DNA of 64,000 nt from Eledone cirrhosa (taxonomy: Eukaryota): NCBI GenBank assembly GCA_964016885.1, contig OZ024740.1:112716001-112780000 (forward strand). Reading direction: 5' to 3'. The notes beneath the pieces were generated by a model, which worked only from the letters and a program-made list of their open reading frames with translations, was not told the origin of the DNA and did not search any database. The translations under genes and the position numbers were made by a program. Below, in pieces: positions 7,617-59,669 of the stretch (position 1 is its first letter; every line of letters starts with the position of its first letter).

Positions 7617-8209
7617 AAACTAACTTGGACAAAGATTTTTCTTAAAAGATCCCCACCAGAAACGAATTCAAAATGGCTAAGAACTGTGACGTGGCAGTGG
7701 TCAAGTCAGAAAGAACGTGATTGGGGCCTCACGGCGAGTGGGCTGGTTGCTATAAAGCGCAGCCCAATATTGCCCAAATTGCATCTCAACCTTATGGGAG
7801 ATTATCAAATATAAAGATTTACATATACACAAACTAGACAAAGTCACAGATATATATGTTTTGGCAACCATTCACGATGTGGCTCAATGATGAATTAATA
7901 AATTAAATAATCAGAGCAATATACTATAAAGTATGTCCATAGATCATTTTATATATATATATATATATATATATATATATATATATATATATATATATAT
8001 ATATATATATATATATATATAGGTTTGTTGGTTCACCACAGGATAGAACTGGTCATTCCGTATAGTCAACCTCGATGTAATATTATGGAGAGCACTCAAC
8101 GTAATGCAACTCACCCGTCTTCGTTTGTGTTGTTGCTGGTGCGAGTACGGAGTTAATTATTATAAAATTACAGGAGGCTGGACTGGTGTAATTCCTTAAA
8201 AGGTTTATT

Positions 8210-8267
8210 ATACTATGAACATTTCAATGACCGGGTTCAATATGAATCCGGTGACATCATCAGGTAT
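8210..8267 (-). ncRNA. Type I hammerhead ribozyme (short stem III)
   Basis: Minus strand: AUAC CUGAUGA UG..CCGGAUUCA UAU UGAACCCGG..UU GAAA UGUUCA UA GUAU. Confidence 0.6.
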
Positions 8268-10399
8268 TCGAAATATAACAAAATCCATGGGGCTGAAAAT
8301 CAGAGACATGAGGGCGGCCGAACATTTAGCAGATTCTACCCCGGTCGGCTGCCCTCTAGTAAAGATAGATAAATGAATAGATAGATAGATATTGACACAC
8401 ATGCACATATAAACACACACACACACACACACACATATATATATATATATATATATATATATATGTGTGTGTGTGGGTGTGTGTATTCATTTATATAATA
8501 TATATATATATATATTGATAGATAGATAGAGAAAGAGAGAGATAGGAAGAGAGAGAGAGAGAGAGAGAAGGAGAGAGAGAGAAGGAGAGAGAGAGAAGGA
8601 GAGAGAGAGAAAGAGAGAGAGAGGGGGGGGGGGGGATAAAAGAGTTATCAATGTGATAAATACAGTCGACTACTTAATCTTTCTAAGGAGTGATACATCT
8701 TTCATCAAGTAACGAAACCTGGTTTCACCGGATTTGGTATGGATGTTGTAATGTCCATGCCATTTCCAAAGACATCAACAAACTAAATGGAATATATTTA
8801 TAATGTCCTCATAGATACATATAGAATACAGTAACACATTGATTTAAAGTAAAGGAATTTTATTGATTCAAGATTTCCTATTCAAATGTATATACACGTA
8901 GACACAAGAAGAGACACAAATGGAAAAACGGAGATCCTTCCCCGGATGAAATGCCTTCCTCCAGATTTGACGGAGGAAAGCAAGATTTCAGGGACCAGAT
9001 GCCGCGAGGGCAACCGGCACAAATATGAAACAGTTAGACTATTCGATATTACAAAAATGTCGGATGGTGGAATGGCGGAATTGGAAGAGCGTAAGAAAAA
9101 AATTGCATTGCGGTTTTTTGTCCCGACTCTTTACATTCTGAGTTCAAGTGCCACTGTGGTCAACTTCGCCTTTTATCCTTATGAGGTAGATAAATTAAAG
9201 TACCCGGTACTTTATTTCATTTATTTCACAAGAATAAAAGGCGACGTTGATTCAAACAAATTTGCCCTTTACTCCACATCTGTTGATCATGGCGTCTAAA
9301 TTCGAACTGTATATTAGAAGAAAGTAAAAAATACGTGAGAAAAGGTTTAGTCTTGAGCGCAATTGATTGATTCATTTGTTTTATTAACTTTGGATGCACG
9401 TAAGGCAAAGTCATAGATGAGGTACGGACTGGGATTCGAACTGGCACTGAGAAAGTGTCATGGACACAGTCACATCCATCAACCACAATTAATTTTTTCT
9501 TTGACAAATTCGTATGATAGTATCACGTTCGAAGAAGGACACCCGTGAGATGGAAGGCTAGGGCAGCGGATGTCATTGACTGTTCTCTGCAGAAAAGTAA
9601 GTTTTCACAATCCTCTTAACGGAGCGAGCTGAAATATTCTGCCCAACCAAGGGTGTAGATTTTTACACCCTCAACATTTCACAACCCACCATGTTTCTTT
9701 TTCTCTTCATTTGTTGTCTTTTAATCATGTATAGGATTACGGAAGTATGGAGAAATAGTATACTTGGTAAATCTGCTGGATGCATGTATAAATGAATACA
9801 AATATTCATACATATATATGTACTTACATAGCAAGCGGAATTTGTCGATCTCGGATTTACAGAAACCTAGCGTGGATGTTGTATGTTATATGTGATGTAT
9901 ATTGTATGCTATACGTTATGCGTTATGTGTTGCATTCGATGTCCACGCGATGGTCCAGGTCAGTCAAAATCTTTTCCTGACTTCAGTTATTTTCGTTGCT
10001 ATGGCAATGCGGCCGGACTGTCGGTCGCTATATTTTATTTGCAAAGCTGTCTAAACGTATTGTTATAACTCTGGGGTAATATTCTCCATCGAGTGCTAAT
10101 GCATTCCGAATCTGCATTCGTTAGCTTGGCCGCAGCCAAAAGCTTCGTTGATGCTGTACTAAAATATGTACTTACATACATAGATACACACACTATGTAT
10201 ATACATGCAAACAATATATATACATATATATATATTAGAAATTGGAATAAATGCTCTGAAATAGCGATATATATGTGAATATAGACATAGAATATTCGAA
10301 AATATTCTGTATGTTTATAATAAACATTTTGAAGACCTAATCGCTATAGAATAGAATACGTCACGTATTACAATTAGATTCTCGATAAAAGCAAGGGAA

Positions 10400-10442
10400 G
10401 TAATCTACGCGTTTCATTCTTGTTAGAAATCATCAGGACCAC
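10400..10442 (-). ncRNA. Type I HHR of the 310-bp unit (also 10710-10752, 11020-11062, 11330-11372, 11640-11682)
   Basis: GUGGUC CUGAUGA U UUCU AACA AGAA U GAAA CGCG UA GAUUAC; palindromic stem III ACGCGU. Confidence 0.8.
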
Positions 10443-57619: not shown

Positions 57620-58546
57620 CGTTTCTGAATTTGTTTAGCAGGATTCTTTATCTGAAATCGTGTGTTGAAACCGATATGATATTGTTATACTTTGGGAGGG
57701 TCATGTTGCCAATAAGAAACACACGCACCAGTTGCTTTCACTTCAATTTATTACAATAAATTTATAAATTTCTGGTTGGTTGGTTGGTTCCACAACCAGA
57801 TAGTTGTTTATATATTGTCATAGTTCTTTCGTCACACACTCTGTGACCTCTTCAGTGACTGGGGATTCCTTTCTTTGTTTCTGTGCCTCTCCTTTGTTCT
57901 GTCCTACGCCATTTTGTTTCTGTGTGTGTGTTGTGTGCTCAGTCTGCGCATGCGCCACATCCGGGTGTCTGTGTGTGTTTATGTTCATTTATCTATTTGT
58001 TTATTTACATGTTACTGGTTGGTTGTTTGTTCTATGTGTGTGTTTTCATTTTGTCCTTAATTGTAAGTTGTGATGTTGCTGTTCCACTCATATTTTCTAT
58101 TTAATTTTGGTTGTAATTCTTTTATGTTTATTGCCTCTGTAATTTGTCTAAACATTGCGTCTTTTCTGTGTGTAGATTCTATTTTTATTTCTATGTTTTC
58201 TAATTTACCCTTGTGTTCTATTTTAGCATGTTGGTAGAGTACAGATGATTCTTTACTATCTTAAAGGTCTCGCCAGTGTTCATTTATCTGTTCCTCTACA
58301 CTACGAGCTGTCTCAACTATGTACACTATATTTTTGTCTCTACATTGCCCTTCAGTACATCTTATGCTATACACTACATTTCTAGTTTCACAGTTAATAT
58401 GGGGGCTTATTTTACAGGTTATACATTTCTTATCTATACATGAGGGTCTTTGAAAAGGGTATGTCTTGCTAATAAGTGTTTTTACGGAGGTACCTGGTCT
58501 TTCTACTATCTTAATATTGAGTTTATGTTTATTTAGGGCCCTTCTA
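57620..58546 (-). mobile_element. PLE 3' fragment: Cys-rich linker, GIY-YIG (to about 58058) and pseudo-LTR with HHR-like motif (57817-57859)
   Basis: NVVYSIRC...YIVETARS...EH; HAKIEH...RQITEAINI...LNRKYEW. Confidence 0.8.
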
Positions 58547-59477
58547 ATATATATATATATATATATATATATATATATATATATATAATGTTCACAAATA
58601 CTTATAGAACATAGATGTACACGAATGTATCGCAAACAATTTGAAAATGATCGTGTCGTAAGGTCGGCCCTAATGACTGACAAGTGAGTGTCACCACAGA
58701 TCAGGCATCTGTCTTTATGTCAGGTGACATCGTTTCATACCACATTGTTTATATGACATGATTAACATATTAATCTCAGTCTTTCTAGTCGCCATCTTGG
58801 CTATAGTCTAGCTTGCTTCAATATCAAAGGGATTGCAGCTGTCATGGCGCGTCTTAACAGATTAGCGAAACCGTATCAAATGATTTTGCAGGATAATAAT
58901 AATGTGTTTAATGTCGACATTATATCGAGCAGCAAGCGTACTTAATTAACCGTACCCGCTTGGAAGTTAGCAACTCTATTTAACGCATCTAATGAACTGT
59001 GTGGTGTTATTTCAATATGTCTGCCTGCCTTTCCGTTTGTCTATCCATCTCACCCCTCCTCTCTCTCTCTCTCTCTATATATATATATATATATATATAT
59101 ATACGAGTGGAAGCTTAGTAAAATCGAAGCTTTGGTTGTGGGCAAGCAAAGTTGATCTACAATAGGAATGAGTTAGCAAAGCACTCAATAAGGGTAGGTC
59201 CTTAGAGTAATAACATACGTTTAAATAGCTTGACAAATTGAACATTGCGGTAGGGAAAACCCAACCACACAATACCAAAGTAACGAAAGAACTAACAGGT
59301 TAAAAGATACACCTATATACTGTATGTATATATATATATATTGGAGAAGATAATTAGACTAAGAGAAAGGAAGGCGAAGAATTATATATATATATATATA
59401 CATATATATGTATATATATATATATATATATATATATATATATATATATATATATATATATATATGTATATATATAT

Positions 59478-59669
59478 AACGAGGGAATTGTGGTAAGGAA
59501 CCAGGTGGACCATAACGCACGAAAGTACTCAATACTTAGGGTAGTAGAGTGGGTGATAGGAAAAGTTGTGACTCCGACGGCAGAGCTGAAGCCGTTTCAC
59601 GGCTATTTCAGTCCTGAAATAGCCGCCGAAACGGCTTAAGCTCTGCCGTCGGGGTCATACCTTTTCCTA
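59478..59669. mobile_element. (TA)n-anchored element of the U3-A8 HHR family with fold-back (59558-59669)
   Basis: gaaacggc..gccgtcggggtc half-ribozyme on both arms; family copies at 13184, 19681, 34168 and 44511. Confidence 0.7.

Follow-up and report, generated by a model that had tools for sequence, protein, structure and literature searches.

A bulged hairpin with a covarying stem recurs near the termini of Hydra-clade Penelope-like elements and may set where their cDNA starts

We analyzed a 64,000-nucleotide (nt) stretch of the Eledone cirrhosa genome (contig OZ024740.1, positions 112,716,001 to 112,780,000; hereafter the window), animal-type DNA of 37% G+C with 135 (TA)n runs, for a hairpin carried by its Penelope-like elements (PLEs) of the Hydra clade and by families of short insertions. 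Comparison of these sequences leads us to propose, with a probability of about 0.7, that an RNA hairpin present twice in the 5′ untranslated region (UTR) of Hydra elements, and kept by their short derivatives, putatively binds the reverse transcriptase (RT) and sets the start of cDNA synthesis. The motif consists of a 4-bp lower stem, an inner stem, a loop and a 2-nt bulge (UN) on the 3′ side, followed by RCU. The inner stem measures 3–7 bp and its sequence is specific to each family, and the lower stem varies as well (ACTC/GAGT, GCTC/GAGC, GCAC/GTGC or GTTC/GAAC). A conserved hairpin tied to PLE ends, as the first-pass annotation of this DNA had supposed, finds support in its covariation between families whose flanks are unrelated, in its position after a hammerhead ribozyme (HHR), and in its recurrence in the Hydra PLEs of other animals.

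The PLE open reading frames (ORFs) of the window are of the Hydra clade, as judged from their sequences. ORF 53966–55387 (−), a 473-aa fragment with 71 homologues, comprises the C-terminal part of the RT and a CxCx5C linker (CNCRANRTC) ahead of a C-terminal GIY-YIG-type endonuclease (EN); the alignment that includes it displays CxxC and CxH motifs around a conserved E and N (invariant C640, C643, E646, N660, C669 and H671). A profile of Hydra homologues matched the window ORFs with independent E-values of 5e-81 and 4e-39, the latter for a Hydra-type GIY-YIG fragment at 41657–42067 (−) whose PF01541 match (E = 5e-4) falls below the cut-off. The window ORFs are 5′-truncated; the N-terminal RWK and DKT motifs are present in 4/5 and 5/5 homologues, respectively. 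The truncated element at 40158–42917 has TA at both family ends, inverted arms (40158–40786 and 42186–42814), Type I HHRs near its 3′ end (40258(−) and 42714(+)) and a tail on the right arm only (42815–42916). The 5′-truncated element at 52430–56194 likewise has inverted arms (52430–53062 and 55388–56020), HHR-like motifs with a core change (52515(−) and 55935(+)) and a tail confined to the right arm. A hammerhead descriptor found 22 motifs in 12 families across the window.

The first-pass annotation had pointed to GAGTRC at nine sites, 51–82 nt from a TA run. All nine are present, at 13327, 19495, 42855 and 44607 on the plus strand and, counting from the first G, at 8097, 44236, 56726, 59186 and 59530 on the minus strand, where the annotation had given the low coordinates (8092, 44231, 56721, 59181 and 59525); the distance to the following TA run is 51–83 nt. 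The 45–85 nt zone holds 9 of the 29 unmasked GAGTRC occurrences while covering 3.4% of positions (0.98 expected, P = 3e-7), which ranks first among 12,288 degenerate 6-mers, and the reverse complement occurs there in 0/30 cases. Eight of the nine occurrences of the extended word GAGTRCT lie in the zone; the ninth, at 10091, belongs to a further hairpin that the annotation had overlooked. Positional enrichment over background was thus found, and simple homology within one family, without covariation, was not; neither test speaks against the motif. The nine sites are not independent: they include two pairs of sibling copies (13327/19495 and 44607/59530), and the missed site at 10091 is a relative of 59186 (we scored flank relatedness and sibling status by z within the window families; z = 8.4 for this pair and 17.7 for 44607/59530). 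Once siblings are allowed for and 56726 is dropped, six families remain.

The proposed pairing required correction. A hairpin does form at eight of the nine sites, in degenerate form at 44607 (44589–44613(+), model E = 2.1), but not at 56726, which was rejected since it lacks the bulge and the inner stem and is unmatched by our covariance model. CTACCC, named as a pairing partner, instead sits in the inner stem and loop. The true lower-stem partner at 59186 and 59530 is an ACTC further upstream, and that of 8097 is the ACTC at 8153 rather than a closer TACTC; the TACCC/GAGTA pairing was therefore discarded in favor of the upstream ACTC. Linkage to an HHR on the same strand holds for the 8097, 13327/19495 and 42855 families, and the 44607/59530 family retains, by eye, the 3′ half of a ribozyme. 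It does not hold at 44236 (hairpin 44230–44253(−), inner stem 3 bp), where the HHR (44344) lies on the opposite strand, across an inversion.

To these sites we added 20 unrelated loci with Hydra ORFs (L091–L110; 83.7 kb) from prokaryote-labelled genome records, which are most likely host contamination because they contain animal-type PLEs, hammerheads and (TA)n runs. Our first descriptor, which allowed a variable lower stem and was written before these loci were obtained, gave 21 matches in the window, several of them by chance; the matches at 57020(+), 26088(+), 7310(−), 33414(+) and 51413(+) were omitted as unsupported, and those at 56054 and 7885 (GCTC/GAGC) and 51778 (GTTC/GAAC) revealed hairpins with other lower stems. 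Counting sites with a lower-stem partner and imposing no inner-stem requirement, we found an inner stem of at least 3 bp behind a 2-nt bulge at 10/16 window sites and 17/28 sites in the Hydra loci, versus 6/100 in null loci (Fisher's test, 6e-7 and 2e-9, respectively). The bulge length is specific: 29/46 sites have such a stem at 2 nt, and 0/45, 3/45, 0/46 and 4/44 at 0, 1, 3 and 4 nt. Among 28 aligned hairpins, 6/7 pairs show changes on both sides, a value reached in 0/500 shuffles, although it is inflated for reasons given below. A covariance model recovered the held-out 8097 hairpin at 22 bits (E = 0.0035), the best of 30 null loci scoring 19.6 bits. No hairpin matched any of 4227 Rfam families at the gathering score. 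In public contigs, 0/40 listed variants fall in the stem core 42818–42828/42847–42861, which we do not use as evidence since 15 further variants lie outside that list. In other copies, A-C predominates at the pair that closes the loop (42829/42846).

The position of the hairpin relative to insertion ends is what ties it to integration. Comparing ends by the shorter copy of inverted or tandem pairs, we found that short copies of six window families end 1–7 nt 5′ of the lower stem. In the 40158–42917 element the 102-nt tail lies between two family termini, 42814 and 42916, and public contigs covering 42500–42917 have (TA)n loose ends at both, in two organisms: among those listed, eight contigs of run X1 and one of X5 at 42814, and 33 of X1 and one of X5 at 42916. 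The former lies 4 nt before the stem of the hairpin at 42819–42861(+) (inner stem 7 bp; pattern scan). Read ends of run X18 (42576, 42587, 42614, 42702 and 42781) were rejected as artefact because they lie at AATT sites of a restriction-site-associated DNA (RAD) library. The fold-back non-autonomous insertion at 19135–19555 (HHRs 19227(−) and 19367(+)) has a short arm ending about 4 nt before its TA-bulged hairpin (19474–19501(+); pattern scan), and the short arms at 56024–56060(+) (GCTC/GAGC, covariant, inner stem 6 bp) and at 59524–59550(−), within the fold-back element 59479–59667, end 3 and 5 nt before their hairpins. A sibling of the covariant GTTC/GAAC hairpin at 51751–51784(+) (mirror copy 51437–51484(−)), with an HHR at 52065, stops 2 nt ahead of the stem, and a sibling of the covariant GCTC/GAGC hairpin at 7879–7917(−) (HHR at 7611(−)) ends at 7232, 1 nt short of the equivalent position. 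Outside the window, siblings in the L098, L098/L103 and L100 families end 5–6 nt before the stem. Long ends lie beyond the hairpins at 8091–8153(−) (ACTC/GAGT, with a 4-bp inner stem and a long loop; 60 nt past the cut at 8214 of the Type I HHR found by the descriptor at 8210–8267(−); long end 8022), 13306–13333(+) (inner stem 4 bp; long end 13387) and 59180–59208(−) (inner stem 5 bp; long end 59104). The distant sibling of the last, at 10068–10097(+), has compensatory inner-stem changes. A hairpin with a TG bulge at 56281–56310(+) is borderline (19.5 bits, and 20.7 for its sibling at 56422–56451(−), versus a best null of 19.6).

Near-full elements suggest an account of the long ends. Those at six outside loci (L092, L094, L095, L099, L101 and L104) carry two hairpins in the 5′ UTR ahead of the ORF, 60–74 nt apart; the published consensus of Hydra-1_Ajap also carries two. 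Long ends fall 4–5 nt before hairpin 2 in L092, L104 and L103/L106. Short ends thus precede hairpin 1 and long ends hairpin 2, and therefore the PLE tail spans from hairpin to hairpin. The 50–80 nt between hairpin and TA run then probably measures how far away a second, uncopied hairpin lay, as we infer for the window families. What is fixed is not the distance to the TA run but that to the terminus on the 5′ side of the hairpin, mostly 1–7 nt.

The hairpin recurs in Hydra elements of other animals. With the descriptor fixed before the sequences were fetched, GCTC/GAGC hairpins were found in 9/20 Hydra loci; a refined pattern gave 21 matches in the loci versus 0.3 in shuffles, and 8 versus 0.2 in the window. 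Of 30 HHR copies in the loci, 12 lead to a hairpin 40–105 nt past the cut, 14 reach TA first and four neither; L096, counted as TA-first, has its hairpin behind a TA linker. The 200 nt upstream of the same 30 copies contain no match to the refined pattern. Six published Hydra consensuses were inspected by eye: the hairpin is clear in Hydra-2_Amil (coral) and Hydra-2_Ajap and occurs twice in Hydra-1_Ajap (sea cucumber), whose consensus starts 2 nt before hairpin 1. In the supplementary text of Naiad and Chlamys consensuses, where line breaks may hide matches, a search for 11 exact 9-mers yielded no hairpin, and seven 9-mer matches outside the Hydra file had no hairpin partner by eye in the text covered. 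Viral contigs gave no match to the sequence pattern and no Hydra proteins.

In the reading we favor, the RT-EN would bind the hairpin in sense RNA, nick (TA)n and prime within the A/U-rich linker that immediately precedes it on the 5′ side. The short end would result when synthesis begins at hairpin 1; when it begins at hairpin 2, the long end would result and hairpin 1 would enter the genome as the "tail". If both target strands are primed, the products would be inverted units tailed on one side only, and short families that keep the hairpin would probably be mobilized in trans. A more specific version, which we offer tentatively and regard as less probable than not, is that the two tandem hairpins load an RT-EN dimer, each subunit nicking one (TA)n strand and starting cDNA 5′ of its own hairpin.

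Several other explanations of the same geometry were considered. The hairpin could act in DNA, with the GIY-YIG EN recognizing it in an integration intermediate, cutting just 5′ of it and trimming the ends. The tail has been attributed to EN-mediated resolution in the sections of PMC8557442 consulted, the EN of the D. virilis element requires tail DNA for recognition (as cited in PMC11167929), and the stems, made up largely of Watson-Crick pairs, fold about equally on either strand. However, the hairpin next to a long end, on its 3′ side, is missing from the inserted copy and would have to be copied and then removed, and in the Anolis Poseidon element PAc the tail ends coincide with measured RT starts (main text of PMC11167929). 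Furthermore, the internal mismatches in the stems number four G-U versus no A-C, with three others, an excess that favors pairing in the sense strand; we consider a DNA-level role unlikely. Identical end geometry would also arise if the RT copied an antisense transcript and halted 1–7 nt before the helix, as at the telomerase template boundary. An antisense template has been proposed for Penelope (PMC3846280) and a template-adjacent helix does bound telomerase copying (PMC4993307), each as described in the portions of those papers covered, but the PAc template in vitro is sense RNA (PMC11167929), the four G-U pairs again point to the sense strand, and the precise (TA)n junction would become the non-primed end. 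This makes a stop signal improbable.

Much the same low probability attaches to a role in expression or in processing of the RNA (as a promoter, in translation, or in stabilizing the ribozyme-cut RNA), with the ends arising from A/U-rich linkers that anneal to (TA)n primers. In six elements the first ATG does follow hairpin 2 by 8–26 nt, and most 8-nt linkers are A/T-rich, often with TAT or ATA. Against this, the hairpin is retained in non-coding families, ends lie beside it even where the linker is TA-poor (the 59530 family and L098/L103), and other A/T-rich stretches between HHR and hairpin have no TA loose ends among those listed. That the motif reflects chance, or passive inheritance from a single family without selection on structure, is very improbable: some window sites are siblings and the motif was found post hoc, but the flanks are mostly unrelated (z = 3 is reached by 7/105 pairs, four of them known siblings) and the inner stems differ between families yet pair. 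In addition, 90 metagenome matches to the pattern, which we judged to be chance and reused as a null, have an inner stem of at least 3 bp in three cases and an HHR in none.

Other observations weigh against the reading we favor. The long-end rule derives from three outside families only, because the window has no full-length copy, and one sibling of the L098 family diverges 13 nt before the stem rather than beside it. Four of the 12 twin copies are imperfect (the first in L095, L099 and L104, the second in L101), 5/12 HHR families of the window, including a 310-bp array, have no hairpin, and the copy at 43099–43270 was inserted despite losing the 3′ half of hairpin 1. The count of both-sided changes is inflated because the 28 hairpins were picked for pairing and their relatedness was ignored, four G-U pairs are a small number, and the folding energy of whole tails is ordinary relative to shuffles (z from +0.6 to −2.3). 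The refined pattern was fixed after L091–L110 had been seen. Finally, by eye, the published Hydra-1_Obim and Hydra-1_Amil consensuses have no clean hairpin and that of Hydra-1_Crog only partial ones.

Long interspersed elements (LINEs) and their partner short interspersed elements (SINEs) share 3′ stem-loops, and the R2 3′ UTR is comparable, so that a cis RNA stem-loop bound by the RT and shared with non-autonomous partners is of a known kind. [quoted passage not shown] At the Hydra hairpin the start would be 5′, internal and at two sites; short-end copies stop before the hairpin, and in full elements it lies ahead of the ORF.

The elements themselves, their hammerheads, (TA)n targeting and tails are already known (PMC8557442, PMC4209133; as far as those papers were covered). 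The Hydra clade of Craig et al. 2021 (PMC8557442) resembles the window elements in its CxCx5C, CxxC and CxH motifs, its HHRs near the 3′ end, its insertion into (TA)n and its inverted units with a one-sided tail. In the sections consulted, that paper annotates only HHRs and mentions no hairpin, and its main text uses "stem-loop" 0 times. The tail described there measures 30–40 bp and is ascribed to EN resolution, while tails in the window are ~60–180 nt and open with the conserved hairpin.

The closest experimental system is PAc, from Anolis Poseidon (Frangieh et al. 2024, PMC11167929), for which the main text describes RT initiation in vitro at two internal positions of the sense RNA, which delimit the tail; the enzyme extends both target strands, needs RNA 3′ of the start and is a predicted dimer. 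PAc starts downstream of an HHR, in a stem-loop region, at an AT-rich target, as we propose for Hydra. It differs in that no cross-family motif is reported in that text and its starts are within the ORF. The printed PAc template, inspected by eye, has no GWGY-RCT hairpin but contains a stem-loop from about +85 and a 3′-bulged one at +121–147, each just 3′ of a start (PMC11167929). Helices of telomerase RNA (template boundary element, CR4/5 P6.1 and ciliate helix IV) offer a parallel to the proposed role, being short, bound by a PLE-related RT and decisive for which part of an internal template is copied (PMC4993307, as far as covered). The boundary element is located on the 5′ side of the template, where it halts copying, whereas the Hydra hairpin would lie 3′ of the start, and we claim no homology. 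Non-LTR retrozymes (bioRxiv 10.64898/2026.07.22.740005) are also non-autonomous HHR derivatives of PLE terminal repeats, but in the preprint text they are defined by tandem HHR units and no recognition element is named. The hairpin-bearing short copies of the window are single or fold-back; the 310-bp array is tandem as in retrozymes but has no covariance-model match. In the literature on PLEs, retrozymes and repeats, leaving aside subscription journals, Repbase reports, bioRxiv supplements and the PAc supplementary figures, we found no twin hairpin at both termini.

Further insertions were noted in the window. The 310-bp array (10236–12750) is arranged head-to-head, retrozyme-like, with eight hammerheads; its two ends, separated by 41 nt, fall 129 and 170 nt past the cut, and the Hydra hairpin is absent. 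The copy at 43099–43270 is a short fold-back relative of the 56024 family in which the 3′ half of hairpin 1 was deleted between short direct repeats. An abundant fold-back family truncated inside the hammerhead (13179–13211, 19682–19743, 34169–34227, 44513–44657 and 59479–59667) shares one short terminus about 17–20 nt after the cut. At 44168–44438, with the HHR on the plus strand and the hairpin plus long end on the minus strand, the arrangement resembles a twin-primed inversion, and its plus arm ends on an 8-nt word also present 8 nt before the hairpin. Another shared word, ATGACCCTCCC or a close variant, precedes the ends of elements by 1–15 nt in two or more other families (~25720–25743, 28200–28224, 57690–57705(−) and 44708–44722(−)), some with CTGAAGA hammerhead cores, and is possibly the terminal signal of another PLE clade.

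A SINE-like family of ~190 nt is present at 1255–1444, 12792–12975, 24749–24931, 26345–26518, 33291–33432, 40984–41172 and 45648–46046; several copies adjoin TA runs and one lies within a Hydra element. The sole Rfam match, tRNA-like, at 20048–20105(−), falls inside a dispersed repeat, also at 5402–5719 and 15670–15990, that is probably a tRNA-derived SINE. Other mobile-element pieces lie at 36217–36942, 47365–49684, 58261–58719(−), 60402–60827(−), 63231–63689, 38428–38694, 21663–21812 and 29428–29985; they include two Pfam RVT_1 matches and further endonuclease/RT pieces, two of which match the Hydra profile. One piece resembles a Helitron helicase.

PLE RTs are the sister group of telomerase, and the hairpin would bear on how they choose their RNA and an internal start. 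Earlier work had linked the one-sided tail to a pair of RT starts in one element, naming no signal in the main text (PMC11167929); the hairpin would provide a covarying, cross-phylum signal at both PLE termini. If the dimer reading is true, a single rule would cover the PLE tail, the inverted unit and the trans-mobilization of short copies, and a portable tag of ~30 nt would make any RNA a template for a telomerase-related integrase. A shared hairpin would explain how many unrelated short HHR families use one enzyme in a (TA)n-rich genome, and as a marker it may assign non-autonomous families to the Hydra clade and fix element boundaries for annotation.

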